From assembly GCA_016188215.1 (NCBI GenBank), contig JACPIF010000008.1:101439-165438 (forward strand): a stretch of DNA of 64,000 nt. Reading direction: 5' to 3'. Origin of the DNA: Candidatus Woesearchaeota archaeon (lineage in GTDB: Archaea > Nanobdellota > Nanobdellia > Woesearchaeales > JACPIF01). The first letter of the stretch is position 1. Each line of letters begins with the position of its first letter. Positions 4,102 to 33,151 of this stretch are shown piece by piece. The notes beneath the pieces are model-generated. The model saw only the letters and a program-made list of their open reading frames with translations, searched no databases and had not been told where the DNA came from. The position numbers were made by a program, and so were the translations under genes.

Positions 4102-4542
4102 ATGAATTGTGACATGTGCGGCCGGAATCCCCAGCAGTTTAAGGCAGCTGTAGAGGGAAGCACCATGCTGCTGTGCCAGGCATGCGCAAAATTCGGGAAA
4201 GTGATTGGAAGAGCAACGCAGCCTGCTCCTGAGAAAGTAAAGATTGAGAAGCCCGAGACCATTGAAATAATTGTTGCAGATTTCCACAAGCTTATACGAG
4301 AAAAGAGGGAAGCATTAAAAGAGAACCATGAGGCATTTGCCGCAAGGCTGGGCATAAAGAGCTCAATCCTGCATAAGATAGAGGCAGGGCATTTTACGCC
4401 TGACATGGAAACTGCAAAGCGGCTTGAGAAGATTCTTGGGCTAAGATTGGTGACTACTGAGGATGCAGGGGGAAAGGCTCCTGTCTTTAAGCAGGCTGAG
4501 GGCATGACGCTTGGTGATTTCATTAAAGTAAAGAAACGATGA
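4102..4542 (+). CDS. archaeal multiprotein-bridging factor 1 (aMBF1)-like: N-terminal zinc ribbon + XRE-type HTH
   Basis: CDMCG...CQAC zinc ribbon, then helix-turn-helix LIREKREALKENHEAFAARLGIKSSILHKIEAGHFTPDMETAKRLEKILGLRL; 4-nt ATGA overlap with next gene. Confidence 0.6.
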   Translation: MNCDMCGRNPQQFKAAVEGSTMLLCQACAKFGKVIGRATQPAPEKVKIEKPETIEIIVADFHKLIREKREALKENHEAFAARLGIKSSILHKIEAGHFTPDMETAKRLEKILGLRLVTTEDAGGKAPVFKQAEGMTLGDFIKVKKR

Positions 4543-6509: not shown

Positions 6510-6536
6510 ATCGCTTTATAAATCTTTAGATGACAG

Positions 6537-9220: not shown

Positions 9221-10719
9221 GTTACCTCAAGCCTGCATAGCGCACGGTATATCTGTATGCCGTGCCTGTTGTACACCTCATTGAAACAAAGCTTGTCCCT
9301 AGTGAATTCCAATGACTGGATGCCATACTGCGCTTTTGTCTTTTGGGAGAAAAAGATATAATCCACATTGTACGCATTAAGTATCCTGATAGCCTCTGTT
9401 TCAGAAGGCGTGGTGAAAAAAAATCTTATGTCCTTCAGCCGATATTCCGCATCCTTGATAAGCAGGAAATTAGTGTCAATTACATTAGCACGGCGGCTCA
9501 CCGCAGTAATTACATGACCTTCCTCAAGGTTTCCAAGGACCATCGCCTTAGGATCACTATGCTCCTGCAGCCATGCAAGAGCCTGGATCTCTTCATCGCT
9601 CACATTATTCTGCATTGCCTTTGAAGCAGAGACAAACGCCGGTATGATAGAAAAAATGAAGAAAGCCAGCACAAACGCAAATATGAAGAGCTGATTATGC
9701 CCTGCAAACCTTGTCTTCTCAAAATATTCAAGCAGGCGCTTGTAGCTTACACTAAACAATATCACCAAGATGGGACTCAGGAAAAGCATACCGACAACAA
9801 GGCTGACAAACTTAAACCAGAGAAGGATGGATATTGTTATGGCAAATGATATAATCAGGTAAAGGCTGCGGTCCTTTTCCTTGAAAAGATAAAGGTAAAT
9901 AGTGTACATTCCCAGGATAAGCGGGATAAGGCCTATTGCGTAGACTGACTCTATAATGCTCAAATCCTTAAAATAATTATTCAATATTTCTGCAGGGATA
10001 TTCTGCCAGATCACATCAATGCCATGGGCAAGGAAGGGTCGCTTGAATGTTATGAAGATTGACCATACGATGAGGAATGTTGAGAACAGGATAATCTCAA
10101 TCTCCTCCTTAAGCTGCGGCAGACCTTCAAGGCGGAGCAGTATTAGATATGTAAGCAGGGACATTATGAGAAGTGTAACTGAAGGATGGATGAGGCGGAG
10201 CAGAAGGATTAGCACGATTATAATGATGACATATGAGCGGTGCTCGTGCAGACGCAGCATGCAATAGATAAATAGAAGGATGATGGGGATGACAATGGCA
10301 TAGACTGATATGTCATTTACAGTCTTAAAGAAAAAAATCGGTATGAAGCCGGCAACATATGCAGAGAAAAGGGCAATGCTCTTGTGCCTGGTGAGATAAA
10401 GGGTGATGGCATACATTACAATGATGATAGAGGTTGCAAATATGTTGGGTATTACCTTGTAAACTATTGCTTCAGGCAGGACAGTGCGGAATGCAGCCAA
10501 AATGTAAAAATACAGGAAGCCCTGAAACAAGCTGCGGCCGCCATAGCTTAACTCATCATTAAATAAAGGAAAACCTGTCTCAAGGATATGCTCTACCTGG
10601 CGGATCGTATAATATGCCTCTGGCGCATAATTATCAGACTGAAACGCGAAATAGAGGCGGATGCCACATATGGCAGCAAACAGCAGCGCCAGTACAATAT
10701 ATTCACTCTTGACCCGCAT
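9217..10719 (-). CDS. polytopic membrane protein, GT-C-like putative glycosyltransferase (tandem paralog)
   Basis: 500 aa, multi-TM N-terminal domain plus C-terminal soluble domain ...ILNAYNVDYIFFS... alignable with previous gene; 4-nt overlap implies operon. Confidence 0.4.
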   Translation of the reverse strand: MRVKSEYIVLALLFAAICGIRLYFAFQSDNYAPEAYYTIRQVEHILETGFPLFNDELSYGGRSLFQGFLYFYILAAFRTVLPEAIVYKVIPNIFATSIIIVMYAITLYLTRHKSIALFSAYVAGFIPIFFFKTVNDISVYAIVIPIILLFIYCMLRLHEHRSYVIIIIVLILLLRLIHPSVTLLIMSLLTYLILLRLEGLPQLKEEIEIILFSTFLIVWSIFITFKRPFLAHGIDVIWQNIPAEILNNYFKDLSIIESVYAIGLIPLILGMYTIYLYLFKEKDRSLYLIISFAITISILLWFKFVSLVVGMLFLSPILVILFSVSYKRLLEYFEKTRFAGHNQLFIFAFVLAFFIFSIIPAFVSASKAMQNNVSDEEIQALAWLQEHSDPKAMVLGNLEEGHVITAVSRRANVIDTNFLLIKDAEYRLKDIRFFFTTPSETEAIRILNAYNVDYIFFSQKTKAQYGIQSLEFTRDKLCFNEVYNRHGIQIYRALCRLEVT

Positions 10720-10771
10720 AGCATGGCTAGTTCACGGTACATTTATTAATTTTGTTATACCTCAATATTTT

Positions 10772-11416
10772 ATGGAAGAATCAGTGAATTCAGGCTTATT
10801 GCATGATGTACTGGGAAAACCTGGCATTACTCTGGTGCACGGACCGGCAGGCACAGGAAAGACATTGGCATGCCTGGAAGCTGTTGCACTACATGCGACA
10901 AAAGGCAAGGTCATTTACATTGACTGCCATGTAAGCAGCTTCCCGTTTGAGCGACTCATGCAGATCACTCAAATGAACCCTGAAAAGCTTAGCCAGCGCA
11001 TCTTTTTTATCCACCCTAGAACTTTTATTGAGCAAGGCAATGTCATCAAAGGCTTGCAGAAGCTGCACAAGGATATTGCATTGATTGTCGTTGATAACAT
11101 CACATACCTCTACCGGCTGCGCAAGGGGGGGTATGGAAAATCCTTTGCAACAAGCAAGGCCCTCATGGAACAGATGGAGATGCTGGCTGAGATTGCAGAG
11201 CGGCTGAAGATTCCGGTGCTGGTCACGAGCCATGTGTATGCAAGTCCTGAGCAGAGTTTCAAGCAGCATAACGTTGTCGGAGGAAAAATATTAGAGAGGA
11301 GAGCTGCACAGATCATTGCGCTTTCTGAAGCTGAAGGGCGCAGGAAAATGAATGTGCTTGGGGAAACCCATAAAGCATACTATTTTACCATTACAGAAAA
11401 AGGTATCAGAATTTAG
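10772..11416 (+). CDS. radB: RadB-like RecA-superfamily ATPase
   Basis: Walker A LVHGPAGTGKTLACLE, Walker B IALIVVDNITYLY, no N-terminal HhH domain, ~214 aa from in-frame ATG at 10772 (track start 10661 overlaps upstream gene). Confidence 0.55.
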   Translation: MEESVNSGLLHDVLGKPGITLVHGPAGTGKTLACLEAVALHATKGKVIYIDCHVSSFPFERLMQITQMNPEKLSQRIFFIHPRTFIEQGNVIKGLQKLHKDIALIVVDNITYLYRLRKGGYGKSFATSKALMEQMEMLAEIAERLKIPVLVTSHVYASPEQSFKQHNVVGGKILERRAAQIIALSEAEGRRKMNVLGETHKAYYFTITEKGIRI

Positions 11417-11419
11417 GCA

Positions 11420-12757
11420 TCATTCTTTATGCAGCTTGAACAGAACAGAAGCGGGGAATTTCTTATAGCCGCTCCGCGCATGCCACATGTCTTCCAGCTG
11501 GCCCCTGCATAGCACTGCAAGTGCCGCGAACAGGATGACATGGAATAAAAGAACCACTATCACGACATGCAGCAAGGTCTGGTGGAATAGGTAGATAAGG
11601 AGCAGCTCTAGGAATACAGCGGGCACAACCACATATAATATTGACCAGCGCTTGATGGCAAGGTTATAGACTACCAGGATATTGCTTAAGGCCAGTAGGC
11701 TCATGGCTATTGCGTAGATGCCTATGTAGCCCGCAATGTCATACTCGCTGCCAAGCATCACTAAAACTATAAAATCGGGAAACAGGAAATATGCAGTTAT
11801 TACAATGATGCAGCCGACTGCAGTCCACAGCATACCAAATCTGAGGTATTCTGAGGTATCCTCACCATTGCTATGGCTTTCAGACACTTTCGGAAATATG
11901 ATCGTGTTCAAAGCCCCTGAGATAAAGAAGACAACAGTGCCAATCAAGGAAAGGGCTCCATAGAATCCACTCTCAACCTCCTTGAAGAAATATTTTACCA
12001 GGATAACATCAAGATTGAGCAGGATGCCAATGCATACTGATGCAGCTGCTGCAAGCAGTATATATTGTGAAAGTCCTATATTGCCCAAGCGTGTTTTTTT
12101 GATTGAAAGGATTGTTCGCAGCGACCATAAGCAGAATGGGATGGTGGCAAGAGCTCCCAGAACCATGGCAACAAGCGCCCCCTTAACGCCGAGGGCAAAC
12201 AGGTAGACAAGCAGGATGCCCAGGAGTAGAGTAGCCAGCGCGTCAAAGATACGGTTAAGTCCCAGTGTGATATACCATTGCAACCCGTTAATCGCGCTCA
12301 AAAGCGCGCTGATGAAGAGAAATGACCAGATGAACATGCCGAGCAGGATGACGGAAAGCGCGGATGGTATGCGGAAGAATTCTGCTATATCTGCCGAGAA
12401 AAGTGTCAGGAGCAGGAATATAAGGAAGCCGAAAGCCATCAAGTACCTCATTGAGGCGCTGAGCAGCGTGCTTATCTTGTCATACTGGCTTTTTGCCTTG
12501 AAATATGTTATATATTTTATGATGATATTGCTAACGACTCCTGCAACTACCGCAGCCACCTGGAATATAGCAAGCAGCACCGCAAGGATTGAATATTCAG
12601 CAGGACCTAGCTTGCGGCTCATGATAACATAAAAGCCGACAGTAAAAAGATTCGCGATGCTGGAGAGCGTAACAACTGTAACCAGGTGCTTCAGCGCAAC
12701 CCAGTTCATAGGCACCTTCGCGTCTATACGATTCCGCAGATTACGAAAGAATTGCAT
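11420..12757 (-). CDS. MOP-superfamily oligosaccharide flippase (Wzx/RfbX-like polysaccharide biosynthesis protein)
   Basis: 445 aa, ~12-14 TM helices, typical Wzx topology and length; adjacent to GT genes. Confidence 0.55.
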   Translation of the reverse strand: MQFFRNLRNRIDAKVPMNWVALKHLVTVVTLSSIANLFTVGFYVIMSRKLGPAEYSILAVLLAIFQVAAVVAGVVSNIIIKYITYFKAKSQYDKISTLLSASMRYLMAFGFLIFLLLTLFSADIAEFFRIPSALSVILLGMFIWSFLFISALLSAINGLQWYITLGLNRIFDALATLLLGILLVYLFALGVKGALVAMVLGALATIPFCLWSLRTILSIKKTRLGNIGLSQYILLAAAASVCIGILLNLDVILVKYFFKEVESGFYGALSLIGTVVFFISGALNTIIFPKVSESHSNGEDTSEYLRFGMLWTAVGCIIVITAYFLFPDFIVLVMLGSEYDIAGYIGIYAIAMSLLALSNILVVYNLAIKRWSILYVVVPAVFLELLLIYLFHQTLLHVVIVVLLFHVILFAALAVLCRGQLEDMWHARSGYKKFPASVLFKLHKE

Positions 12758-14740: not shown

Positions 14741-14784
14741 GGAGCCTGAGAATAAAATAAAAAAAGAAAGGGATCAGATATCCC
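14741..14784 (-). terminator. radA terminator: hairpin GGGATATCTGATCCC overlapping the stop codon followed by oligo-T tract (minus-strand sense TTTCTTTTTTTATTTTATT)
   Basis: Inverted repeat 14770-14784 and T-run 14741-14768 immediately 3' of radA stop; archaeal termination uses oligo-T. Confidence 0.45.
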
Positions 14785-15850
14785 TTAAGCCAGAGGTCTC
14801 AACATAGAAGTTAGCCTCACCTTCAGGCAAATTCGGGCTGTCCACCAGTTTGGCAACCCGGCTGCCCTTCTTGCCTTTCCTCAGATAAATCCTAAAGGTA
14901 GAGGCATGCGCAACTACGTGGCCGCCTATTGCCTGCGTTGGATCTCCAAAGAAGACATCGGGCCTTGACATGACCTGGTTGGTGACATAGACGCAGAGAT
15001 TGTAGGTGTCCGCGAGCTTGAGCAGGGTGTGCATATGCTTGTTCAGCTTCTGCTGCCTGTCAGCTAATGTCCCACGGCCGATGAATTCAGCCCGGAAGTG
15101 TGCGGTTAAAGAGTCAATGATGACCAGCTTCACCTTCAGGCCCTGCTTCTTGATAAGATCTTCAACCTTCTCGCCAAGAAGCATCTGGTGGTCTGAGTTA
15201 TAAGCCCTTGCCACCTTGATGTTTGAGAGCACTTTCTGCGAGTCCATGCCAAGACCTTCAGCCAGCTGCTGGATCCTTTCAGGACGGAAGGTATTCTCTG
15301 TATCTATGAAGACTGCAACTGCATCCGGGTCATCCTTCTGGACGTTAACTGCAAGAGAATGCGCTATCTGTGTCTTGCCGCTGCCGAATTCCCCGAAAGC
15401 CTCAACAATGCAGCCGGATTCAAAGCCGCCTCCCAATAAATTATCAAGAGCCTTGCTTCCTGAAGAGACTTTGAGCACTCTTGCCCTGCGCTCAAGCAAC
15501 TGGATGCCGGATTCAAAGCCCATCTCCAGAGCAGAGCGTGCCGCCTGGATCATCTTCCTCGCAGCCTGTTCAGTAAGGCCAGTAGCCTCAACAATCTCGC
15601 CGGGAGAAGCTACCGCAACACTTAACAGCGTTGTATATCCGACTTCCTCAAGGCGGGCTGCGGTTGCAGGGCCAACGCCCGGCAAATCGCTTATGCCGGG
15701 CTCTTTCTTGATGTGAACCTGCTCAACCTGCTCTGCAGTGCTGCTTCTGGAATGAGCAGTTTGCCTGCCCTGATTATCCTTTACCTTTTGTCTTTCTCTT
15801 GTTTCAGAATTTTGTCCTTTGGTTTCCAATACTACCACTTTTTGCATCAT
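14774..15850 (-). CDS. radA: DNA repair and recombination protein RadA
   Basis: HhH N-domain ISDLPGVGPATAARLEEVGY, Walker A EAFGEFGSGKTQIAHSLAV, Walker B VKLVIIDSLTAHFR; start placed at ATGATG 15850 with GGTGA Shine-Dalgarno 5-11 nt upstream, rather than track start 15970. Confidence 0.85.
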   Translation of the reverse strand: MMQKVVVLETKGQNSETRERQKVKDNQGRQTAHSRSSTAEQVEQVHIKKEPGISDLPGVGPATAARLEEVGYTTLLSVAVASPGEIVEATGLTEQAARKMIQAARSALEMGFESGIQLLERRARVLKVSSGSKALDNLLGGGFESGCIVEAFGEFGSGKTQIAHSLAVNVQKDDPDAVAVFIDTENTFRPERIQQLAEGLGMDSQKVLSNIKVARAYNSDHQMLLGEKVEDLIKKQGLKVKLVIIDSLTAHFRAEFIGRGTLADRQQKLNKHMHTLLKLADTYNLCVYVTNQVMSRPDVFFGDPTQAIGGHVVAHASTFRIYLRKGKKGSRVAKLVDSPNLPEGEANFYVETSGLRDI

Positions 15851-15863
15851 AATCACCTCTTGT

Positions 15864-16217
15864 TTATATAATTTCCTCAACCGGCTCTTCGTCAGAATTC
15901 TGCAGGGATTCCCGCATGACCAGGTATTCATATGCCTTCTGCAGCACAAGTGTTGCCCTTGGAAGGTCATTGATCCTCAGGCTGCCGGAGTTCTGCCACT
16001 TCCCGCTCTTGTCCTTATAGGCACGCTGGAATGATACTGTGCGGTAATTGACTACGCCATCCTTTCCGGCTGCCTGGTTTTGCCAAACTGTTGCAGAAAT
16101 AGTTCCAGACATGAACTTTTTTTCAGGGGCGTTCCTGGAATCTTCCACCCTGAAATCATTGTATTGCTTTAGTTTTTGCATTTTGATGCACCCTTTGCTT
16201 TTCGCATTTTGTTTCAA
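15864..16217 (-). CDS. small protein, possible PC4/Sub1-like ssDNA-binding fold, co-operonic with radA
   Basis: 117 aa; segment VNYRTVSFQRAYKDKSGKWQNSGSLRINDLPRATLVLQKAYEYL loosely matches the PC4 ssDNA-binding domain pattern; only 13 nt upstream of radA on same strand. Confidence 0.3.
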   Translation of the reverse strand: MKQNAKSKGCIKMQKLKQYNDFRVEDSRNAPEKKFMSGTISATVWQNQAAGKDGVVNYRTVSFQRAYKDKSGKWQNSGSLRINDLPRATLVLQKAYEYLVMRESLQNSDEEPVEEII

Positions 16218-17890: not shown

Positions 17891-18682
17891 TTATGGGAAC
17901 TCAAGGGCAAACCGGATCTTGTGCGCCTGCTCCACTATTTTGTTCTTTGCATCTGCTGTGATGAGCTTCTTGCCGGTATTGTAGCAGAATGTGTAAGTCT
18001 TCCGCTGGTACAGCTTTTCATCACATGTCTTGCCAATATCTCCTTTCCTGACTGCAAGTAGCGCTCCATCCTGGCCTTTCGCCATCCTGTAATTTAGGGT
18101 GCTGGAGAAGGATAGTGGGGCAACAAGCCTGGCATTATGGACTATGCCGGAATACTTTTGCTTATTTACCTCTGCAGTAATCTGGATATCATTTCCTGAC
18201 TGTGCAAGAGTAAACGTAGTGCCGCTAATGTGCTGATGGCCGCACTCGCAGTTCGTTGTCTGGCTTGAGGAGCAGTTGCTGACATAGTCCAGAAAATCCA
18301 TGAAGCTGCCTTGATCCCCCTCGTAGCAGCCTATTAATAACCGCTCTTGGGAATTTCCTGCTGCCTGCTCAACATTGTAGAGCAGCACCTCATTATTGAC
18401 GCAGGATTCCTTGCTTGATTCTGAGGAGCACTTATTGTAGATGCGGCTGAGGGCAGCCTCAATGCGGTCATACACATTCAGGTCATAATCCAATTCTACT
18501 GAGAAGGACGGGCGGATTGAGTAGGTGCCTACAACTATCCTGTCAGTAGATACTATGACCTCTGGCAGAGGACTAGATATGGCAGAGCCGGTAATCCCAC
18601 TGAAGTCGTAGAGCTCAAGCACAGCTGCCCCAGCTAGCAGGAGCACGGCAATCATCGGAATGAATAATATTTTTTTGTTCAT
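17891..18682 (-). CDS. secreted/membrane-anchored hypothetical protein (signal peptide), last gene of pilin-like operon
   Basis: MNKKILFIPMIAVLLLAGAAVL N-terminal signal; Cys-containing; no motif. Confidence 0.4.
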   Translation of the reverse strand: MNKKILFIPMIAVLLLAGAAVLELYDFSGITGSAISSPLPEVIVSTDRIVVGTYSIRPSFSVELDYDLNVYDRIEAALSRIYNKCSSESSKESCVNNEVLLYNVEQAAGNSQERLLIGCYEGDQGSFMDFLDYVSNCSSSQTTNCECGHQHISGTTFTLAQSGNDIQITAEVNKQKYSGIVHNARLVAPLSFSSTLNYRMAKGQDGALLAVRKGDIGKTCDEKLYQRKTYTFCYNTGKKLITADAKNKIVEQAHKIRFALEFP

Positions 18683-18683: not shown

Positions 18684-19742
18684 TTACGTAATGATATATA
18701 GAGGCTTTACCTCAGCATTCATGCTCTTTGATTCCTCCTTTGCCCAGAGCGGCGTCCCGTATTCCCAGTGCCACCATTCATTTGCGAGATTGACAAAGCC
18801 TACGCTTGTCATAATTCTATTTAATTCTTTACGACAATCATTTATCTGAATACCGTTTGGATCCTTTGCATTATTGTAGTCATTGAGCATGCCCCTATAG
18901 CTGCTTACGGTTCCACAAGCCTGCCTTATACCTTTAAATTTTAGACGTACGTCTACAGCCCCACCAGTAAGATGTGCAGAAGATTCTGAAGCTGCTGCGA
19001 GAGGATTGCTGCATTTTCCTTCTCTTGTCTTTCCACCGCATAATTTTTCCTGCTCTTCCCTTGAGCGGTATGCGCTATTCACAATAAGCTCGTGACCTGC
19101 CTGCTGAGCCTCTTGCTGCGCCTTTTGCAACCTTTTATAGGCTTCCGGCTTCAATTTGCAGATATACTGCTGGCTTTCTGCAGCACAAGAGAACGGGATC
19201 ATATCAGGCAGGTCAGTTATTTCTGGTTCCTGTCTTATTGAAACTGTTGTTTTTGGCTCCAAGCTTAGATCTGATTGGAGCGCGCTCGTGGCAATGCCAA
19301 GAAATATGAGATGGCCTTTATTGACTACAGAATATTCATAATTCTCTGCCTTAATGGCTATATCCTTATTCTGATTCAATCTTTGATTAAAGGAGGTCAT
19401 GAATGTCTGCTTCAAAATAGTATCAATCTGCGTTTTAGCGGGCAAGCAAGATTTCTCTTTATACAAAATGGCATATGTTCCATATGCCTGGCATATGCCT
19501 AATCTCTCAGGAAGCTCCTTTAGTGCCAGCTGCACGCTAAAATGGGAGGCAGACTGTATGTAGGCAAGCTTCGTATATGCCTCATTCTCATTGCTATATA
19601 CAGATAGTGCAGCTTCCCCCACATATGTCAATTGAGGCTTGACCTCTGGAGCAGTTTTGGTTGCCTGCAATAATGCCCATGCAACTGAACCTATCCATGC
19701 GGCAAGTATCAGGTATATCATAATGCTTGATTTTTTATTCAT
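18684..19742 (-). CDS. secreted zinc D,D-peptidase, VanY / peptidase M15 family (LAS metallopeptidase fold)
   Basis: Signal peptide; C-terminal half has ELIVNSAYRSREEQ (SxHxxGxAxD-family first motif), HLTGGAVDV, and NEWWHWEYG (second His motif) in the order characteristic of VanY/M15B. Confidence 0.55.
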   Translation of the reverse strand: MNKKSSIMIYLILAAWIGSVAWALLQATKTAPEVKPQLTYVGEAALSVYSNENEAYTKLAYIQSASHFSVQLALKELPERLGICQAYGTYAILYKEKSCLPAKTQIDTILKQTFMTSFNQRLNQNKDIAIKAENYEYSVVNKGHLIFLGIATSALQSDLSLEPKTTVSIRQEPEITDLPDMIPFSCAAESQQYICKLKPEAYKRLQKAQQEAQQAGHELIVNSAYRSREEQEKLCGGKTREGKCSNPLAAASESSAHLTGGAVDVRLKFKGIRQACGTVSSYRGMLNDYNNAKDPNGIQINDCRKELNRIMTSVGFVNLANEWWHWEYGTPLWAKEESKSMNAEVKPLYIIT

Positions 19743-20236
19743 GGTAACATTAATGGTAATTCTGGAACATTAGCCTCTACAATATCTTTTCCTACTGATA
19801 GTGTCAATGTTAGAAGCTCTCCATTAGGAAGCGAAAGTGTAACAGATGAACTACTTTGTTTTCTAGCTGCGAATGCGTAACTTGGACCGTAAATTCCATA
19901 AGATTCATAACCACTCAACTTTAAGGACCATGTTGTATCACCTCTATAACGAGCATTAAAATAAGAGTTAACTGCCTTTTCAATAGCGCTATAATCTCTA
20001 GCGGCAATTCCTTTTGCAAAGATATCTATAATTTCTTGACCATCGCTTGAAGTGCTTACAAACTCAAGCAGCACTCTTGTGGCCTCAATTTCCTCCAGAG
20101 TTTGCTCTGCCTGGTTCTCCAGCTTTTCTTCCACACCTTTCCTGATTCCCACAAAAAGGATGAAGGAGAACGATATAAAGAAGATTGCAAAAATTATCTG
20201 CAGCCAATCGTCCATTATCGCTTTCTTATGAATCAT
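19739..20236 (-). CDS. membrane-anchored pilin-like protein (N-terminal KK + hydrophobic helix)
   Basis: MIHKKAIMDDWLQIIFAIFFISFSFILFVGI; ATGA overlaps with both neighbours. Confidence 0.35.
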   Translation of the reverse strand: MIHKKAIMDDWLQIIFAIFFISFSFILFVGIRKGVEEKLENQAEQTLEEIEATRVLLEFVSTSSDGQEIIDIFAKGIAARDYSAIEKAVNSYFNARYRGDTTWSLKLSGYESYGIYGPSYAFAARKQSSSSVTLSLPNGELLTLTLSVGKDIVEANVPELPLMLP

Positions 20237-20712
20237 TGTTCAATCTCAAACTGGAGCTTACCATCTACGAAATATCCTGACATGTAGATACTTACTTCCT
20301 TAGTCCTCTTACTAGCTGCGCTACCGCGCCAGTTCTTGCTGGTCAGAGCAGCTATCTGGCTTCCTTTAGCATCCTGTAATATAATTCGTATGGATTTTCC
20401 TTTGGTTTTGAAGTCTGCTGGATAGCAGCCATCCATAACACCCTGGGTAAATTTAGATGCATCTACCACACTTAGCCTGTACGTGAATTGGTCGGAAGTA
20501 TAAGCAAAACATTGCGGTGAGTTAATGAAACGCTCAGTCATGATAAAATTTCCCAGATCCTTAGGCGTAGCGAGGCTAAGGTTACTTATTGATACTACAA
20601 GATACATAAGCAAGGTAAGCAGGATAGTCAAAACAAACAATACTGCAACATAAAACATAATTTTATGCGCAAACATCTGGGCTTTATTTTGCCACAAGGG
20701 CTTTGAACTCAT
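20233..20712 (-). CDS. membrane-anchored small secreted protein, pilin-like
   Basis: N-terminal basic stretch then 25-aa hydrophobic helix; translationally coupled. Confidence 0.35.
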   Translation of the reverse strand: MSSKPLWQNKAQMFAHKIMFYVAVLFVLTILLTLLMYLVVSISNLSLATPKDLGNFIMTERFINSPQCFAYTSDQFTYRLSVVDASKFTQGVMDGCYPADFKTKGKSIRIILQDAKGSQIAALTSKNWRGSAASKRTKEVSIYMSGYFVDGKLQFEIEQ

Positions 20713-21593
20713 CTTTTAATCTCCTCCAGCGCCTTTATAACTGCTGCTGCAGCTTCTGCCGAATAAGGATAAGATTTATAGGAGTCACTTTTTATATTGC
20801 CTAATTCAAGGTATACTCCTTGGTTTTGCAAGGCAGCCCTAATGTCATCAGCAGGCATGCGGGCTGAGTCAATTGGAACAATATAATACCCATCTGCAGA
20901 AACCTTCTTTATCAATTGGTTAATGAGCGTGCACGCTACATAATACGATTTTGTGGAGTCATAAGGAATGTATGCCTTAATTAAATTTGGAGCCTTATCG
21001 TTATTGCTCATGCCTAGCATGATTACAAAATCACTGCTTGTTGCATCCAGCCTTGCTTGCACGTTTTGTATGCCTTTCGTGATTTTCTCTACTTCCTGCG
21101 CTTGCTCCCCCTGTATGTTGGATTTCCTGATTATTATTGAATTGAATTTATCCAAAGGGGGGATGCCGCAATAAATTGCATTCATAGAAGGAATATAGTC
21201 ACTTGCCTGCAGAATTGATCCCTGTTTTATAAGTGCAAGATAGGGTGGGTATTCAAACCTACTTTTTTGAAAGTTATAGCCGGCAGGCAAAGGTGCAAGA
21301 GGATATATTCCCTTAATAGGATCCCCTGCTGAGATTTCTACAGAATTAGAGCTTATAGTTACTATGTAATCATAGAGATTATCAAATTCAACATACGCAT
21401 TACCTTGTATCCCTGACAGGGCTTCCAGGGCCATTCCAATGTTATTTGCTATTCCCTGCTTAGAAGCGTATTCCCTGCCTACATACTGTTTTCCAAGCTC
21501 TATAAATAAATATCCTACCACAATTGCCAGGAGAATTTCAAGGATGGTTATGAGAGGATACTCTGTGCCTGTTTGAGCTTTTTTGTTTGCCAT
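20709..21593 (-). CDS. type IV pilin-like protein (class III signal peptide-like N-terminus)
   Basis: MANKKAQTGTEYPLITILEILLAIVVGYLFIELG: basic N-term, KAQ then Glu-containing hydrophobic helix. Confidence 0.4.
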   Translation of the reverse strand: MANKKAQTGTEYPLITILEILLAIVVGYLFIELGKQYVGREYASKQGIANNIGMALEALSGIQGNAYVEFDNLYDYIVTISSNSVEISAGDPIKGIYPLAPLPAGYNFQKSRFEYPPYLALIKQGSILQASDYIPSMNAIYCGIPPLDKFNSIIIRKSNIQGEQAQEVEKITKGIQNVQARLDATSSDFVIMLGMSNNDKAPNLIKAYIPYDSTKSYYVACTLINQLIKKVSADGYYIVPIDSARMPADDIRAALQNQGVYLELGNIKSDSYKSYPYSAEAAAAVIKALEEIKR

Positions 21594-21595
21594 GT

Positions 21596-22273
21596 CTAGT
21601 TATATGTCCCAGGCGGCAATATCTCGCAGTTGCTTGTTGTGCATACGCCAACCTTCCCGAGATCCTTTCGCACATATACTGCCTTTACATTCTGGTTAAT
21701 CTTGATGCCCGGGATATTATTAAAGTAAGCTGGCAGGGTCTCACTGCGCACAATAGCGAAGCCATTTTTCCAGAAGTAGCTTTGCATAAGGTTTTTGCTA
21801 GATCCTACTTGATCAGAGCGGCGCTCTGAGATAAGGGTGTAGCTGGTTATTGCCACTGTATTTAAGGCTCTGCACTCTGCTGCTGCAGTGCACCTGCTTT
21901 CTGAACCTATGCTTTCCCCTACTGAAAGCTCTGAGCAGAGGCAAATGCATGATTTCCCTTTCTGGCAGGTGCTAAGGCGCTCAACATATGTGAGCATTAA
22001 TTCCGCTCCGTTATATTCCTTATTGATAAGCTCCAGCCTTTGCGCGTCAGGAGAAAAGGCCAGGATTGCATTCTTATCTTTATCAAGGAAGAAGGCTAAC
22101 GGGTCCTGGGAACCTTCCTTTACTGATTCCATCTTCCCGATCATAGTTGTAAAAGAATTTGAAGTGCGAAAACTTACTGCAAATATATCATAAGCTATCT
22201 TGCCGACCATGACAAAGAGCAACACACCTATAACGACCAAAATAAATGTGATGGTGGCAAAGGCTCGTGGCAT
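21596..22273 (-). CDS. pilin-like membrane-anchored protein
   Basis: MPRAFATITFILVVIGVLLFVMVG N-terminus; Cys-rich C-terminal domain. Confidence 0.35.
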   Translation of the reverse strand: MPRAFATITFILVVIGVLLFVMVGKIAYDIFAVSFRTSNSFTTMIGKMESVKEGSQDPLAFFLDKDKNAILAFSPDAQRLELINKEYNGAELMLTYVERLSTCQKGKSCICLCSELSVGESIGSESRCTAAAECRALNTVAITSYTLISERRSDQVGSSKNLMQSYFWKNGFAIVRSETLPAYFNNIPGIKINQNVKAVYVRKDLGKVGVCTTSNCEILPPGTYN

Positions 22274-22276
22274 TTT

Positions 22277-22600
22277 TCAAGAGATGCAGTTTGTCTTGGT
22301 AGGATCTTTTCTCATTGCATCTATGAGTTTTCTGCATTCATTGGAAGGTGTGCTGCAGCTTCCATCTGCATTTGGTTCCTTATTAGGGTTGCATGGGCAC
22401 CTATCAAGAACGTCTTGTATCCCGTCATTGTCGCAGTCTGAAGAGATACCGGTGGTAGTGTCGCTTAATGGTTTTGTGCCTTTTGCCCATAATTGGCCTG
22501 GCCCAAATACTGTATATCCGATTACCGCCATGGCAAGCAATCCGAGTCCCATCCAGACTATGATCCATATCATATCTGATGCTGCTTTCTTGTTGTGCAT
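22277..22600 (-). CDS. small pilin-like protein
   Basis: MHNKKAASDMIWIIVWMGLGLLAMAVIGY N-terminus; 107 aa with CDNDG..C..C Cys-rich tail. Confidence 0.35.
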   Translation of the reverse strand: MHNKKAASDMIWIIVWMGLGLLAMAVIGYTVFGPGQLWAKGTKPLSDTTTGISSDCDNDGIQDVLDRCPCNPNKEPNADGSCSTPSNECRKLIDAMRKDPTKTNCIS

Positions 22601-22727
22601 AGTATCACCCCTGCATAGGTATTGATTCTTGCCCTAGAGCACGTTAATGTATGAAACTTTGATGCCAACATCGAGCTGCCTTCCATCTCCTTTTTAGTCA
22701 TTTGTCTCACCTTTTGTCCATATTTAT

Positions 22728-23516
22728 TTAGCATAGATTACCTGCACTTTTCCCCGCGAGCGCAGACATCATGTATGACTGTATGCCGATGTTGTAGGCA
22801 TTTGAAGGCAACCTAATTGTATCATAAGTCGGTATGAAGCAGATGTGACCCTCGTCTACATTAAAAAGCAGGCTATGATCCTTTAGTTCCCCCTTTATTA
22901 AGGAGACGCCTGATTTGTATTGCACATCAATCCTATCCCTTGCATAGGTAATTTTTGATGCCTCGGCATACCTATCCGCTGGATTGCTTATTGTATATTT
23001 TGAGACATCATAATTCCATTCCTTTTCCAAGCCAAAGCGCTTAATCAAATATGGAACCTGGGTATTGCCCGTTATCACACAAGGTGTTTTAATGGCTGCA
23101 GGGCTTCCAATAAAATGGCGCTTGACTTCTACATTGTTTGGGCCCACCAACACAATATACATGCCCTGCCTATTTTTGTCCGGTGAAGCCTGGAATACTA
23201 TTGAGAATCCCTGGAAATCAGCAGGCTTTGCAGGGTATGGCAACAAGCATTCCTTTGCGTATGTTCTACTGAAGATTATCAAAAAGTTGTTGTAGGCTGT
23301 GTTAACTTCCTCAGAAGGCACTGGCGTACTGACCTGCAAGTCCTTTTGCGGCCCTATGAATTCTATTGTAATAAAACTGAGGACAAAATTAAATGCGTAT
23401 TTGATGGCAGTGCCTATATTGATTCCCAAAACGTAGAGGGCAAATATGAAAAGAGCTAGAAGAACCAAGATTACTAAAAGGAAGCTCATACCTTTTTTGT
23501 GTTTCATGCAAACCAT
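22728..23516 (-). CDS. type IV pilin-like protein
   Basis: MVCMKHKKGMSFLLVILVLLALFIFALYVLG: KKG followed by hydrophobic helix. Confidence 0.4.
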   Translation of the reverse strand: MVCMKHKKGMSFLLVILVLLALFIFALYVLGINIGTAIKYAFNFVLSFITIEFIGPQKDLQVSTPVPSEEVNTAYNNFLIIFSRTYAKECLLPYPAKPADFQGFSIVFQASPDKNRQGMYIVLVGPNNVEVKRHFIGSPAAIKTPCVITGNTQVPYLIKRFGLEKEWNYDVSKYTISNPADRYAEASKITYARDRIDVQYKSGVSLIKGELKDHSLLFNVDEGHICFIPTYDTIRLPSNAYNIGIQSYMMSALAGKSAGNLC

Positions 23517-23659
23517 TCTAGTATAAAGTTTAATTTCCCACGTATAGCGAGATACCCTAAAGCAAAAACAATTATAACAGCGCCGGCTATTGCTAATCCT
23601 ACAACTGCATTTGGGATTATTTCTATGCCTTTTTTATTTAGCTTGGTATTACGCTGCAT
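23504..23659 (-). CDS. mini pilin-like protein (51 aa), class III signal peptide-like
   Basis: Hand-translated: MQRNTKLNKKGIEIIPNAVVGLAIAGAVIIVFALGYLAIRGKLNFILEWFA; NKKG/IEII nearly identical to N-terminus of the 23638..24876 product (NKKG/IELI); below 60-aa track cutoff; overlaps neighbours by 13 and 22 nt. Confidence 0.4.
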   Translation of the reverse strand: MQRNTKLNKKGIEIIPNAVVGLAIAGAVIIVFALGYLAIRGKLNFILEWFA

Positions 23660-24876
23660 AGTGGCTCGCCTCCGCCCTGCACTTGCTTATTTTCTATCTG
23701 TGACAGGCTAGTTAAATAGATTGTGGAAGCTGATCGAGCAGGATTAAAGAAATCGGCCAAACCAACATTAATAGTTTCAACTGCCTGTCCCGCAAACACT
23801 CCAGCTGTAATGCCAATTCCCCCTCCAATTACACCTATGGCAGTAGCTGTGATTGATAAAGGTAGGGTGATAGGCAGCGCAACAATTGCGATTCCAACTC
23901 CAACTGCTGCAGCGCCCCCAATCACAAAACCAGTTCCGATACTCAATGATTTGCAAAGGGTTGTATCGCAGGTATCAGCAGGGCTTCCAAAGCTAATTGC
24001 ATAAATTTCATTGGGCTTAATATCTGTAAGGATGAACACATTGCCAGGGCCGTTAGCTCGCTGGAAATATGTATAGTAGCTTAAGTCATTCTCCTTTTTG
24101 ATATAGCATGATTCCCCCTTTGGGCATTGCCAATTTGTATAGAGGGCGTAATCAAAACCGAGAGAGTCCTTGCTGCAGCGGCCGCCATTGTTGACGCATT
24201 GGATATTGCTAAAGCAACATCCTTCCCCTTTCTGGTCTTTTCTGCAAAAACTATTACGAAAATCAAATTGAATCTGGTCAGGGTTGCCCTGCATTTTATT
24301 AGGGCTAATGCAGTCAGCTTTGCTGTTGGCGCAAAATCCTCCCCTGTCTGTGCCTGAAGTAAAGCACCTGTCTGTCGTATCTTTTGGCTTAAAAGGGGTA
24401 GTTTGCAGGTAAAGCATGAATTCTTCAGGCGCAATCGGGCTTTTGATATCAGCATCCTGTTTTACAGTAAACAGATAGCAAGTCTGGCAGTTATTAATCC
24501 AAGGAGTCCCTTCCTTGAACACATCCCTGACCTTGCCCTCATCATACCTTTGCCAGCAGCTTTTCATCAATTCTGCTATGCCTCGCTCAACTGCTTCCCT
24601 GCTTTCACCTTTTTTTGGGATCTGGCCTTTATCAATGGTTACGCATCCAGCTAATGGAGCCCTGGCAGATACGGCCGTGACGCCTGCTATTTTTGACTGG
24701 ATCTCGTATCTTCTCAGCCCAATATTGATTTTGCAAGCTTCATCTTTAAGTGAGTCATCAAGGTTATACAGGATCTTTGGGAATATGGGCACAATAAGGA
24801 GCACCGCAATAAATATAATTACAAGGGCTGCAATCGCGCCAGTTATCAGCTCGATACCTTTTTTATTTATGGCCAT
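23638..24876 (-). CDS. large type IV pilin-like protein with Cys-rich domain and C-terminal Gly/Ala/Ile-rich hydrophobic region
   Basis: MAINKKGIELITGAIAALVIIFIAVLLIV (KKG then Glu at +2, pilin-like); 412 aa. Confidence 0.45.
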   Translation of the reverse strand: MAINKKGIELITGAIAALVIIFIAVLLIVPIFPKILYNLDDSLKDEACKINIGLRRYEIQSKIAGVTAVSARAPLAGCVTIDKGQIPKKGESREAVERGIAELMKSCWQRYDEGKVRDVFKEGTPWINNCQTCYLFTVKQDADIKSPIAPEEFMLYLQTTPFKPKDTTDRCFTSGTDRGGFCANSKADCISPNKMQGNPDQIQFDFRNSFCRKDQKGEGCCFSNIQCVNNGGRCSKDSLGFDYALYTNWQCPKGESCYIKKENDLSYYTYFQRANGPGNVFILTDIKPNEIYAISFGSPADTCDTTLCKSLSIGTGFVIGGAAAVGVGIAIVALPITLPLSITATAIGVIGGGIGITAGVFAGQAVETINVGLADFFNPARSASTIYLTSLSQIENKQVQGGGEPLCSVIPS

Positions 24877-25077: not shown

Positions 25078-25188
25078 TATTGCCAGGGAGCCGCTGAACA
25101 AAAGGACTACAGAAATAACTATGATAAGGGCAAGTGAGGTTATTAAAATGATGCCGAGAGAAAGGCCCTGGGCTTTTGTCAGGATCAT
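25078..25188 (-). CDS. mini pilin-like peptide (36 aa)
   Basis: Hand-translated MILTKAQGLSLGIILITSLALIIVISVVLLFSGSLAI; ATGA overlap with stop of 25185..25472. Confidence 0.3.
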
Positions 25189-25472
25189 CTAGCTGTGGGA
25201 AAACAACATTTTTTATTCTTATCTACCTTATTATTTGCGTCATAACAGCTTGCACTTGGCAGATCCGCATAATCCGGAGGGCAAGCGGAGCCCGCGGCTG
25301 TGTCGCAGCTTCCGCCTTTAGATACACAATCCTCTACGCCAAACCTGAATATAGCAATCCTTCCTGTAAATATAAGGACCAGGATTACCAGGACGATCAG
25401 GGCTATAGCCGCTACAATAATCACGTTGAGAGAAAGCTCTGCGCCTCTTTTATTCCTCTTATTCTTAAACAT
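25185..25472 (-). CDS. type IV pilin-like protein (class III signal peptide)
   Basis: MFKNKRNKRGAELSLNVIIVAAIALIVLVILVLIF: basic region, RG-A, Glu-containing hydrophobic helix; small Cys-containing globular part. Confidence 0.5.
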   Translation of the reverse strand: MFKNKRNKRGAELSLNVIIVAAIALIVLVILVLIFTGRIAIFRFGVEDCVSKGGSCDTAAGSACPPDYADLPSASCYDANNKVDKNKKCCFPTAR

Positions 25473-25670: not shown

Positions 25671-26192
25671 TTAACTGCAAATATCCAGCACAATAGTTAA
25701 TGTTCCTGCGTCCGTAGGGATATAGTTCTGCTTTGACTCTTTTTCGCCTGTGCACCTGCCGTTAAATGATTTCATGAGCGGCTGCCCAGGGATCCTGGCC
25801 TCAAAGTAATAGCTTTGGTTGCCCCATGCAATTAATGTGCTGTTGAACATGCTGGCAATTGTTTCTCTAGTATAGTCACAGGACCTTTCATTTGCATCGC
25901 AGCGGAGCTGGGTATTAGGGGTATTATAATTCTCTGCGCAGTCCTTGAGCAGCTCGCCTATTGAATTTCCTGCACAAGCATCGGCTGTAGTCCTGAGGAA
26001 AGAGCCTAATATGTTTGAGGCAAGCTGCGTCTGGGTAAAGGTCTTCTTGAGGGTTGAAGGCTCCTTGTTGAGGTTGAACTGTATGATAAATAGCATGCCC
26101 AGAGACACAAGAATCATGATGACTGCAAGGCCCATGATCTCCATCTGCGCGTGTCTGCCAGCCTTCTGCATATGCTGTATTTTCAGTATCAT
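25671..26192 (-). CDS. pilin-like protein
   Basis: ...MQKAGRHAQMEIMGLAVIMILVSLGMLFII N-terminus. Confidence 0.4.
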   Translation of the reverse strand: MILKIQHMQKAGRHAQMEIMGLAVIMILVSLGMLFIIQFNLNKEPSTLKKTFTQTQLASNILGSFLRTTADACAGNSIGELLKDCAENYNTPNTQLRCDANERSCDYTRETIASMFNSTLIAWGNQSYYFEARIPGQPLMKSFNGRCTGEKESKQNYIPTDAGTLTIVLDICS

Positions 26193-26665
26193 GGGTAATA
26201 TGTCACCTCAACCACGCCCATGTTATAGCGCTTGGCAACAGGGTCATAGAGTGAAACTGGAAGGGGTGTAAAAAGGCTGCCGGAGCTGTTAGTGGTGCGC
26301 TCATAGAGCTTCCATTCCTGCCTTGCCGGATAGAGCTGCTTCACTACAATCCTGCTTGACTCAAAAGAATCATAATAGATAAGCTGCAAGGCAGAATCTG
26401 CCTGCAACATACGGCTGAGCGCCTCAAGCTTGAGTATGTCAATACAATTGTCAATCATTATGTTGTTGGCAGCGCACTGCAATTCAGGCAGGCTGAAGGC
26501 GCGCTGGGCAACTTCAACTGAGCGCTTCTCCTGCTCCTCCTGCAGCACAGTCTTGAATGTAGCGCGCTGGAATTTTGCATAGAACATGAATCCAAATATG
26601 ACCAGGATCAGAAACACAAAAATGACGCCAAGGGTTTCAGCCATCTTGAGCTGGGCGCGCGGCAT
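26189..26665 (-). CDS. pilin-like protein
   Basis: MPRAQLKMAETLGVIFVFLILVIFGFMFY; ATGA-coupled to neighbours. Confidence 0.4.
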   Translation of the reverse strand: MPRAQLKMAETLGVIFVFLILVIFGFMFYAKFQRATFKTVLQEEQEKRSVEVAQRAFSLPELQCAANNIMIDNCIDILKLEALSRMLQADSALQLIYYDSFESSRIVVKQLYPARQEWKLYERTTNSSGSLFTPLPVSLYDPVAKRYNMGVVEVTYYP

Positions 26666-27747
26666 CAGTACACCTCGCTGCAGGATAAGCGCTGGGCCTG
26701 CTCGTTTCTGGACCTTAACTCCTGAGCCTTCTGGTGCAGCTGTATAAGGGCTGCCTGCTCAGGAAATGATGTTGCCAAGGAGGTTGCGTGCTGCTTTATG
26801 GATTGCAGGGCGTCAAGGCTCAATGCATACTGGGTTGCGCAGGCTGTATCGCCTGCTGCCTGTGCAGCCTGCTGCAGCTTGCCGGCCTTTTGAGTATAGA
26901 CTTCTGAAACTGTTTCCATGCGCTGGAACAGATTTTGCATGTTGCAATTATAGGACTTATAGTCATCAGCCATAACTGCCGCAAACAGGCTTTCCCTTCC
27001 AAGATAATTGCTTGATCCAGGGACAGTACTCCAGTATTGGCCGCGCTTCTGGTAGAATCTTAGTTCACCAGGGCCGTCAAGTGAGTTTCCCATAATAGAC
27101 AGGGCTGACACATCAGTATCCTCAAGCGTGTTTATGTCTAGCAATCCTTCAGTACCAAGAGGGTTGCGGTTGACAAAGATTAGCCTGATGCGGTAGTTGC
27201 CCTCATTCATTATAGTATTGGCATCAGCAACCGTCTCCTTGTTGAGCAGAAGCTGACGCGAACTGCCGCGGGCAATGAACTTGGGCGGCAATGAGCGGTT
27301 GAGCTCCCTAGAAAGGGATGAGTCGCCTACAATTAAGTACTTGACATTAGGAGATGTCACCATAAGGATGTTGCCAACCCTGAACGGCATGCTCCAGTCT
27401 TTAGACCATACCATTATCTTGAAACCCTGCAGACTGCCGGGGGCAAACGAGATGCCCTCATGCACCGGATTAAGGTCATTCACCGAAAAACCTTCACAGG
27501 AATACGTGATATCCTTGTCTGCAATGTCAACTAAGGATGCGGTTCCTGTGCTGGCGCGCGCCCCTGTAAATATTGTCTTGAGGTCTGAGCGCACTTTTGC
27601 AGATACCTTGACCTCTGAAACTGTCTTCTGCTTGTCCGCTATAGTAATGAAAAATGTGAGGATAATACCGCCTATGACAAGGATAAATATCCAGTTGAAC
27701 TGTATCTCAACAAACCCTTTTCTTTTAAATTGCCTCATCCTCTTCAT
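26665..27747 (-). CDS. type IV pilin-like protein, 360 aa
   Basis: MKRMRQFKRKGFVEIQFNWIFILVIGGIIL: RKG-FVEIQ resembles prepilin G-F-x-x-x-E cleavage context. Confidence 0.45.
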   Translation of the reverse strand: MKRMRQFKRKGFVEIQFNWIFILVIGGIILTFFITIADKQKTVSEVKVSAKVRSDLKTIFTGARASTGTASLVDIADKDITYSCEGFSVNDLNPVHEGISFAPGSLQGFKIMVWSKDWSMPFRVGNILMVTSPNVKYLIVGDSSLSRELNRSLPPKFIARGSSRQLLLNKETVADANTIMNEGNYRIRLIFVNRNPLGTEGLLDINTLEDTDVSALSIMGNSLDGPGELRFYQKRGQYWSTVPGSSNYLGRESLFAAVMADDYKSYNCNMQNLFQRMETVSEVYTQKAGKLQQAAQAAGDTACATQYALSLDALQSIKQHATSLATSFPEQAALIQLHQKAQELRSRNEQAQRLSCSEVY

Positions 27748-28268
27748 GACCAGGGTGAAAGCTCTGTATAGCTGCCCCTGCCCTCCAGCTTCAGCGTGAT
27801 TTTTGAGAATGCCACATTCTGGCAGAAGAAATGAGCCTGTGAAATGCGTGCAGCGCCTATGTCAATGGACAGCGCCTCCTGGTTTCGCGAAAGTAGAAAC
27901 ATATTTTTCTGGATGCGGTCCTTCCAGCTGTTGCAGATAATCGCATTATAATCGTCGTTTCCCTGCGTGCAGAGAGCTGTTGAAGACTGACCGGTATAGC
28001 TTAAATCTATAAAGCATACCTTATCGTATTGATTAGGGACTGCGACCTCTTTTTTCAGGACTGTGCCGTAGTCTGCAGCAACCTTCTTGACTGCTGACCT
28101 CAAATCCTTCTCTATCTGCAGGATCACAACCCTGTCAGCCTTGTCACCAAGGCTCCTTATTGAGTTGTAGCCATATATCATGATAAGCGAGAACAGGACA
28201 ACCGCAAGAATGTAGATAAATACCTCTCCGATAACCTGGGCTTTCCTTTGATTCATTTGCATTGCCAC
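27744..28268 (-). CDS. pilin-like protein
   Basis: MAMQMNQRKAQVIGEVFIYILAVVLFSLIMIY. Confidence 0.4.
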   Translation of the reverse strand: MAMQMNQRKAQVIGEVFIYILAVVLFSLIMIYGYNSIRSLGDKADRVVILQIEKDLRSAVKKVAADYGTVLKKEVAVPNQYDKVCFIDLSYTGQSSTALCTQGNDDYNAIICNSWKDRIQKNMFLLSRNQEALSIDIGAARISQAHFFCQNVAFSKITLKLEGRGSYTELSPWS

Positions 28269-28296
28269 GCAAGATAATAGTTACTATTTATGGCTG

Positions 28297-33127: not shown

Positions 33128-33151
33128 TTGCTTATTGCTTATCCATTTTGC

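Follow-up and report, generated by a model that had tools for sequence, protein, structure and literature searches.

Murein-degrading enzymes have been described in archaea before. Modular peptidoglycan hydrolases (PGHs) occur in ~5% of archaeal genomes and are prominent in Nanoarchaeota, and Woesearchaeales proteins combining LysM with Peptidase_M15 or LysM with SLT and bearing Sec signals have been tabulated (Strock et al., 2025, PMC12352652). Furthermore, large SLT proteins are known from Woesearchaeota and Pacearchaeota, for which bacterial hosts or predation were suggested (Castelle et al., 2021; Vigneron et al., 2022), and it was proposed that Woesearchaeota attack or attach to bacteria via SLT and LysM-PGH proteins. 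The subject of this study is the gene NMOD of a Candidatus Woesearchaeota archaeon (contig JACPIF010000008.1), located in a stretch of 64,000 nucleotides that we refer to as the window and whose numbering is used throughout. NMOD encodes an M15-type zinc peptidase head fused to an N-terminal scaffold, the N-module. A first-pass annotation, made from the sequence of the window, had started from the premise that such an enzyme is surprising in an archaeon, a premise that is weakened by the LysM+Peptidase_M15, LysM+SLT, and giant SLT proteins already described. The enzyme is of a known kind; what appears to be new is the scaffold with its swappable heads and the gene cluster around it. In the searchable literature, we found no description of this scaffold, of the alternative heads it carries, or of the conserved cluster.

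Like the archaeal PGHs compiled by Strock et al. (2025), the NMOD family has murein-type catalytic domains, occurs in archaea without murein, is prominent in Nanoarchaeota, and is predicted to be secreted. It differs from them in that the catalytic domains are mounted on a DPANN-specific N-module and that the genes are chromosomal, with a fixed place in a syntenic cluster. The PGH screen required a Pfam cell-wall-binding domain in addition to a catalytic domain (Strock et al., 2025, PMC12352652). NMOD, in which a catalytic domain but no wall-binding domain was found, falls outside this definition of a modular PGH, and the N-module family, having no known wall-binding domain, would be missed by the screen. 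The giant extracellular SLT proteins (Castelle et al., 2015, 2021; Vigneron et al., 2022) stem from the same lineages and led to the same conclusion, from murein degradation to bacterial hosts or prey. However, they reach 3000 amino acids and carry a single SLT domain, whereas the scaffold described here is small, bears four alternative heads and, in NMOD itself, presents a peptidase instead of a glycan-strand-cleaving enzyme.

The reading frame was found where the first-pass annotation had placed it (Table 1), and the motifs SAYRSREEQ, HLTGGAVD, and NEWWHWEYG are present in this order. The protein matched the Pfam families VanY (PF02557; 34.5 bits, cut-off 25) and Peptidase_M15 (PF01427; 34.4 bits, cut-off 27), and both matches are also precomputed for an identical Woesearchaeota protein at NCBI. 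The head has the LAS fold, a central antiparallel sheet with helices that is common to Hedgehog-N and MepA, and the zinc-ligand arrangement of M15/LAS enzymes, namely H-x6-D, a downstream histidine, and the glutamate of E-x-x-H. With these three defining features, NMOD is a member of peptidase family M15/LAS, and the zinc peptidase identity originally assigned is confirmed. Specifically, residues H257, D264, E322, and H325 align to H116, D123, E181, and H184 of VanX, and SAYRSREEQ aligns with SGYRSYDRQ of YodJ/LdcB.

In an alignment of 69 non-identical homologs with ~25% identity, R226, H257, D264, E322, and H325 were each retained in 68 sequences, as was Q231, while E327 was found in all 69. 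The Cys pairs C84/C99 and C186/C195 were kept in 66–69 of the 69. These numbers are counts per alignment column, since a regular expression covering the whole motif set (27/69) was too strict. A lack of conservation of the zinc ligands, which the first-pass annotation had allowed for, was thus not observed. Because the active-site residues are kept in 68/69 homologs at such low overall identity, the pattern apparently reflects an enzyme under selection and not a degenerate binding module, and the head is predicted to be catalytically competent.

The bond that is cut is not readable from the sequence, as M15 spans D,D-dipeptidases, D,D- and L,D-carboxypeptidases, and L-Ala-D-Glu endopeptidases. 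Hence, the narrower designation as a D,D-peptidase is not established. The NCBIfam equivalog cut-offs for DdpX (PRK10178; 56.5 vs. 176) and VanX (dipept_VanX; 26.9 vs. 320) were missed by far, and NMOD is therefore not an ortholog of either enzyme. VanX and DdpX (MEROPS M15D; PDB 1r44) are soluble cytoplasmic bacterial enzymes of ~200 amino acids, whereas NMOD is archaeal, predicted to be membrane-anchored or extracytoplasmic, and equipped with a 160-residue N-terminal scaffold and disulfide-type Cys pairs. Compared to the VanY/LdcB/CwlK-type enzymes of M15B and the M15 phage endolysins (Ply500, LysB4, T5), the identity of NMOD is only 17–24%; SH3, LysM, or PG_binding domains for wall binding are absent from it, and it has no close phage relative.

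A helix spans residues 3–30 of NMOD in an AlphaFold2 model computed from a 38-sequence alignment. Since this N-terminal membrane helix is combined with the conserved Cys pairs C84/C99 and C186/C195, the protein is predicted to be extracytoplasmic, and we infer that it is secreted or displayed. Residues 1–30 may be either a signal anchor or a class III-like signal.

The N-module is the second defining part of the protein. Residues 1–190 gave no Pfam match, the N-module additionally gave no NCBIfam match, and its predicted fold had no counterpart in the PDB. Within the family, the module is conserved, with G42 in 69/69 and C84/C99 in 66/69 homologs. The family signature consists of a membrane helix followed by ...IGE.QL...AEKALFYIDQSAKYSA...GG...CG.Y.GY.iW...CFPD...NY..., with an invariant glycine and a Cys pair, in a gene that is penultimate in its cluster. 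NMOD conforms to this definition, with a divergent core motif (LAYIQSASHFSV). An exhaustive profile search gave full-length alignments of NMOD with ~35 of the listed clusters at 50% identity.

When 185,579 genomes, one for each species and most of them bacterial, were searched for the motif L[FL]YID[QL]SAK, 44 loci were confirmed, a number that is to be taken as a lower bound, as the motif of NMOD itself departs from the one scanned. Another 57 loci with the N-module were retrieved by a metagenome scan. All 44 confirmed loci belong to archaeal metagenome-assembled genomes (MAGs) labelled as Woesearchaeota, Nanoarchaeota, Pacearchaeota, or, in third-party annotation (TPA) records, as "uncultured Methanosarcinales". 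We conclude that the N-module is a previously undescribed, DPANN-specific domain, found here only in DPANN-type archaeal MAGs. The architecture was thus not found to be widespread in free-living archaea, a case that the first-pass annotation had considered.

The cluster was seen in 19 TPA_asm records labelled "uncultured Methanosarcinales archaeon" (L006, L009, L013, L014, L017, L018, L020, L021, L024, L027, L029–L032, L034, L038, L041, L045, and L046). Their RadA proteins are 69–75% identical to that of the window, as are those of Woesearchaeota-labelled loci, the synteny with RPA and RadA is the same, and their GC content is 30–41%. In view of this common synteny and RadA identity, the label is doubtful and appears to be a placeholder or an error.

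The strongest available argument for the substrate is the variety of heads on this one scaffold. The N-module was found joined to an SLT lytic transglycosylase and a tail (P0078; 78 bits), to Amidase_2 (P0082; 96 bits), to M15 and a tail (P0025), or to a tail only (P0075, P0096). Among 36 complete proteins from GTDB loci, Pfam detected VanY 12 times, Peptidase_M15 nine times, Peptidase_M15_3, SLT, Amidase_2, and fn3 twice each, and Phage_lysozyme2 once. A census of 65 unique complete N-module proteins comprised 30 with VanX/VanY-like M15 heads, two with M15_3 (46–48 bits), two with Amidase_2, two with SLT, nine of the N-module–tail type, and ~20 without a head; all catalytic domains detected in this set are murein hydrolases. 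As four unrelated enzyme classes that are alike only in their substrate sit on one scaffold, the pattern points to bacterial murein as the target of the heads. The interaction with bacteria favored in the first-pass annotation gains strength from this result. The M15_3 (DUF882/YcbK-like) heads, located at L033:2687-3736 and L034:9881-10882, are a second, independent acquisition of a LAS peptidase on the same scaffold. An SLT-like C-terminus of the L052 protein, guessed by visual inspection, was unsupported by Pfam.

With respect to the origin of the M15 heads, a rough neighbor-joining tree placed 44 scaffold-borne heads in a clade of 67 tips together with 23 other M15 proteins of varied architecture; the tree did not separate one acquisition from several. 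A recent capture from a phage endolysin was rejected, as only one marginal tblastn match was obtained in 50,697 phage genomes and the viral structural matches were weak. Among the latter were large phage structural proteins with embedded M15 domains.

NMOD is the penultimate gene of a same-strand run extending from ~17.9 to ~37.8 kb, in nearly all products of which a hydrophobic helix follows a short, basic N-terminus (Table 1). The ATG of NMOD overlaps the stop codon of the gene before it (ccATGA) and the next gene begins 1 nucleotide past its TAA, in line with the translational coupling and the tight packing among genes with pilin-style N-termini noted in the first pass. The surroundings are chromosomal and archaeal: the window contains RadA/Rad51, RPA, MCM, both PolD subunits (DP1 and DP2), Orc1/Cdc6, PAN, and an archaeal-type S2 gene.

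The conservation of the cluster was determined with phmmer, by comparing each protein of the window with the open reading frames (ORFs) of the first 46 related loci. Conservation extends over the genes from 17891 to 31554. Homologs were found in 28 loci for TAIL, 26 for NMOD, 17 for g165, 23 for g159, 17 for g294, 20 for g225, 21 for g107, 25 for g412, 22 for g173, 19 for g158, 19 for g360, 15 for g174, and nine for BIG1085. The order BIG - g174 - g360 - g158 - g173 - PIL95xN - g412 - ... - g165 - NMOD - TAIL - RPA - RadA is conserved as well, and the orthologs of syntenic genomes are only 20–50% identical.

Table 1. Position of NMOD, its parts, and the surrounding cluster genes in the window
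Feature	Position	Strand	Description
NMOD	18684..19742	-	352 amino acids, ATG start; membrane helix, N-module, linker, and M15/LAS zinc peptidase
N-terminal segment, residues 1-30	19653..19742	-	MNKK, then hydrophobic helix of ~21 residues
N-module, residues ~40-160	19263..19625	-	Two long helices and a beta-hairpin; G42 invariant; C84/C99 pair
M15 zinc peptidase head, residues ~186-340	18723..19187	-	LAS fold; VanX closest
SAYRSREEQ, residues 223-231	19050..19076	-	R226 corresponds to the substrate- and transition-state-binding Arg of VanX/LdcB
HLTGGAVD, residues 257-264	18951..18974	-	H-x6-D with zinc ligands H257 and D264
NEWWHWEYG, residues 321-329	18756..18782	-	E-x-x-H with general base E322 and third zinc ligand H325
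TAIL	17891..18682	-	263 amino acids, final cluster gene; homolog of the C-terminal tail that some relatives have fused to the N-module
g165, g159, g294, g225, g107, g262, g51, g412	19739..24876	-	Eight upstream genes; homologs in 5-25 of 46 loci, ordered; most with basic N-terminus and hydrophobic helix
PIL95	25185..25472	-	95 amino acids, candidate major pilin-like subunit; N-terminus MFKNKRNKRG, then AELSLNVIIVAAIALIVLVILVLIFTGR...
g173, g158, g360, g174, and Big_13/TSP_3 surface protein (1085 amino acids)	25671..31554	-	Upstream block; homologs in 9-22 loci, order conserved
Four genes (559, 423, 898, and 176 amino acids)	31448..37787	-	Two very Cys-rich; continue the same-strand run

TAIL matches the tails of P0075 and P0025. 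Its homologs, leaving out N-module fusions of up to 733 amino acids, range from 173 to 620 amino acids, and eight of 21, the longer ones, contain fn3 domains. The tail is a separate gene in the window and is fused elsewhere behind the N-module, in some cases with an SLT or M15 head in between (P0075, P0096, P0078, P0025, L011, L015, and L020). Judged from these arrangements, the ancestral unit looks like N-module plus tail, into or onto which heads were inserted or appended, with occasional gene fission.

PIL95 is a small pilin-style protein with 70 homologs in 39 of the 46 loci, one to five copies per displayed locus, and often in tandem. Its N-terminus is near-invariant (KK[GAS]Q.[IL]S.N.II.AAIAL.VLVVL..IFTGR) and its C-terminal part is rich in cysteine (C...C...C...CC). 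It may represent a new family of archaeal filament subunits. Apart from one sub-threshold TSP_3 match, no Pfam family was found for the eight genes directly upstream of NMOD.

The protein that heads the cluster in nine loci (28297..31554, minus strand) combines Big_13 Ig-like domains and Ca-binding thrombospondin type 3 repeats with Cys-rich, EGF-like spacers, and terminates in a membrane helix with a Lys-rich cytoplasmic tail; from this composition, it looks adhesin-like. The last four genes of the run had no homologs in the 46 related loci. Three of them (31448..37253, minus strand), encoding two Cys-rich predicted surface proteins of 559 and 898 amino acids, the latter with a poly-Pro stretch after its signal helix, and a protein of 423 amino acids, had no Pfam match. 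They look lineage-specific and may possibly serve host recognition.

The best explanation for the whole, which we hold with belief and doubt in equal parts, is that NMOD is a scaffold-mounted murein peptidase which a DPANN-specific surface apparatus holds against a bacterial wall and which opens this wall locally. The head would cut peptide bonds in the stem peptides or cross-links of bacterial murein. The N-terminal membrane helix and the N-module would form a conserved structural subunit of this apparatus, with the N-module integrating the protein into the assembly encoded by the cluster. About 16 syntenic genes would contribute, among them those for small subunits of pilin-like type in tandem, for tail proteins with fn3 domains, and for a large surface protein of the Ig/TSP3 type. 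Different lineages have mounted different murein hydrolases (VanX/VanY-like M15, M15_3, Amidase_2, and SLT) on the same subunit. Contact of the assembly with the bacterial envelope, followed by local opening of the wall, would then let an episymbiotic or predatory archaeon attach, penetrate, or gain access to nutrients.

That the apparatus holds the enzyme against a bacterial wall is the most likely arrangement by analogy, because the swapping of heads parallels phage tails, spikes of type VI secretion systems (T6SS), and type IV secretion systems (T4SS) or flagellar machines with dedicated wall-cutting enzymes. The likeness to VirB1 of the T4SS, flagellar FlgJ, VgrG/PAAR-linked T6SS effectors, and phage tail-associated lysins is one of working principle only, i.e. 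an apparatus subunit with an interchangeable murein hydrolase. There is no homology between the scaffold and these envelope-spanning machines, which mostly cut their own wall or a target of the same domain of life. In contrast, the archaeon that produces NMOD has no murein, and a foreign wall is therefore the probable target and a bacterium the presumed partner. An extended version of this explanation, a vertically inherited machine of ~16 genes by which an archaeon breaches a bacterial wall and in which two M15 types, an amidase, and a lytic transglycosylase are interchangeable on one subunit that serves murein hydrolases as a universal adaptor, is put forward tentatively, with doubt prevailing.

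Several observations weigh against a wall-opening surface apparatus, among them those concerning its filament nature. A pilus is favored by the small size, the multiple copies, and the uniform N-terminus of PIL95 and by the residue preceding the helix in the N-module family, which is G, S, or A in 42 of 43 proteins (G 18, S 12, A 12). However, the strict class III pattern (FlaFind-type, [KRDE][GA][ALIFQMVED][ILMVTAS]x3 plus a hydrophobic stretch) matched a minority of the cluster proteins only, namely 15 of 65 PIL95 homologs, one of 25 locus-derived NMOD sequences, six of 43 representatives from the protein search, and zero to seven members per other family. A relaxed pattern ([KR][GAS] plus helix) fitted most cluster proteins and also 31% of unrelated ORFs, and was not used as evidence. 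Neither NMOD nor its neighbors matched a pilin or archaellin profile (Class_IIIsignal PF04021, Pilin_N PF07790, and the NCBIfam archaeal pilin/flagellin models), and 76 homologs of PIL95, g173, g158, and g174 gave no match to pilin or class III signal profiles at E ≤ 1. Membership in the Class_IIIsignal/DUF361 family ("QxSxExxxL") was rejected, as Pfam gave no match to it in these 76 proteins. Additionally, the predicted fold of the N-module is unlike that of pilins, in which a long N-terminal helix packs on a globular beta-sheet domain, and no secretion ATPase, platform protein, or class III signal (A24) peptidase was found among the ~60 scanned proteins of the window.

Walker-A proteins in 15 inspected loci were seen only downstream of the cluster and resemble RadA in size and position. 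As candidates for assembly machinery, the genes at 7772-12757 were rejected, since they encode polytopic membrane proteins of glycosylation type and lie beside the cluster only in the closest relative. The assembly machinery could be encoded elsewhere in the genome. Such a separation of functional proteins with class III signals from the core machinery is a known arrangement in archaea: like the NMOD family, the proteins of the Sulfolobus bindosome are functional proteins other than pilins with N-termini of the pilin style, and their genes lie apart from the ATPase/platform core. The bindosome proteins are sugar-binding and not hydrolases, and class III processing of the NMOD family is putative. 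Overall, membership in a type IV pilin system is not established by profiles, machinery, or fold, and the "pilin-like operon" of the first-pass annotation remains unproven. The cluster may be described more safely as a conserved one for a surface assembly with pilin-style N-termini, the filament nature of which we infer from the sequences.

Further points against the proposed role concern the enzyme and the partner. Approximately one third of the N-module proteins are devoid of an enzyme; the apparatus thus does not depend on wall cutting. The head of NMOD is closest to VanX/DdpX, and its D264-to-E322 spacing of 58 residues is VanX-like; as the corresponding region limits VanX to the free dipeptide, the head might spare polymeric murein. 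Moreover, all cultivated DPANN archaea have archaeal and not bacterial hosts (PMC11291902).

The alternative that survives best, and that we nevertheless regard as rather unlikely, is a stand-alone murein hydrolase, anchored or released, with an antibacterial or scavenging function; the neighbors would be generic envelope proteins and the N-module a mere stalk or anchor. The evidence for the enzyme is the same in both cases. The missing type IV filament machinery and pilin profile matches and the fold of the N-module are compatible with this alternative, and archaeal PGHs are known as stand-alone enzymes, including the Woesearchaeales LysM+Peptidase_M15 proteins with Sec signals. However, NMOD has a fixed penultimate place in a syntenic cluster of ~16 genes whose orthologs are only 20–50% identical, and the N-module is enzyme-free in about one third of the genomes and fused to the tail in others, which argues for a primarily structural role in a multi-protein assembly. 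Furthermore, a patchy distribution with a bias toward plasmids has been reported for weaponised PGHs (Strock et al., 2025, PMC12352652), whereas the NMOD locus is chromosomal and syntenic with RPA and RadA.

Less probable still, indeed improbable, is a D-Ala-D-Ala dipeptidase of the DdpX/VanX type or a peptidase acting on an endogenous archaeal envelope component, serving nutrient salvage or remodelling of the own envelope. Such a function fits the VanX similarity of the NMOD head. It is at odds with the large distance to the equivalog cut-offs and with the lid region: the D-to-E segment varies from 26 to 74 residues across the homologs (mode 34), and a closed dipeptide pocket of the VanX type is therefore not a family feature. 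The same scaffold also bears Amidase_2 and SLT heads, the substrates of which are the MurNAc-L-Ala and MurNAc-GlcNAc bonds of polymeric murein. A self-directed role is further opposed by the annotated genes of the window, among which no genes for murein or pseudomurein synthesis were found.

The exclusively archaeal hosts of cultivated DPANN archaea would favor the pseudomurein of a methanogen host (Methanobacteriales or Methanopyrus) as the target instead of bacterial murein. We consider this highly improbable, as it conflicts with the chemistry of pseudomurein and as murein is the substrate on which each of the four head classes (M15, M15_3, Amidase_2, and SLT) is defined. The amino acids of pseudomurein are exclusively L-forms, with isopeptide bonds, its N-acetyltalosaminuronic acid is beta-1,3-linked, and it resists lysozyme-type enzymes; the known pseudomurein hydrolases, PeiW and PeiP, are cysteine endoisopeptidases. 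Finally, a catalytically dead M15 domain that binds ligands as in Hedgehog-N and acts as an adhesin for D-Ala-containing ligands is scarcely credible, given that 68/69 homologs with ~25% identity retain the Arg, the general base Glu, and all three zinc ligands.

Outside the cluster, several other features of the window were observed. A glycosylation-type locus near the S2 gene (4539..12757) comprises PMT_2, GT2, two proteins with 11 transmembrane segments (482 and 500 amino acids), and one with 12 (445 amino acids); the 11- and 12-segment proteins had no Pfam match. A RadB/KaiC-like ATPase on the opposite strand of this locus also matches the Zot family (filamentous-phage assembly). Among the relatives, only the closest one, L001, has kept this arrangement. 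At 38209..39816 (plus strand), a fusion of 535 amino acids joins an MFS-like membrane domain to a spermidine/spermine synthase domain in a low-GC stretch (0.36–0.37 at 38–42 kb vs. ~0.45 elsewhere). Two unusual regulator fusions were seen on the plus strand, HTH_20 with an S-layer-like outer domain (S_layer_C; 1140..2063) and TrmB with a PLD-like domain (54257..55057). The RadA ORF (14774..15970, minus strand) encodes 398 amino acids, ~48 more at the N-terminus than the L001 ortholog (350 amino acids), and the true start is probably an internal ATG.

The locus bears on which organisms host the very abundant Woesearchaeota and Pacearchaeota and on how these cells attach; bacterial hosts are only suspected. 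The locus makes the question whether these archaea target bacteria, and with what, directly testable. It offers a small expressible enzyme, a candidate filament subunit of ~95 amino acids, a scaffold protein, and an N-module signature for mining metagenomes. It also contributes archaeal murein hydrolases of a class that would escape any screen of domain architectures in which a known wall-binding domain is required. A conserved chromosomal locus with repeated acquisition of different murein-cutting heads by one structural subunit is hard to explain except by contact with bacterial walls. If the cluster does encode a wall-breaching machine, many abundant uncultured archaea would live on bacterial rather than archaeal hosts.

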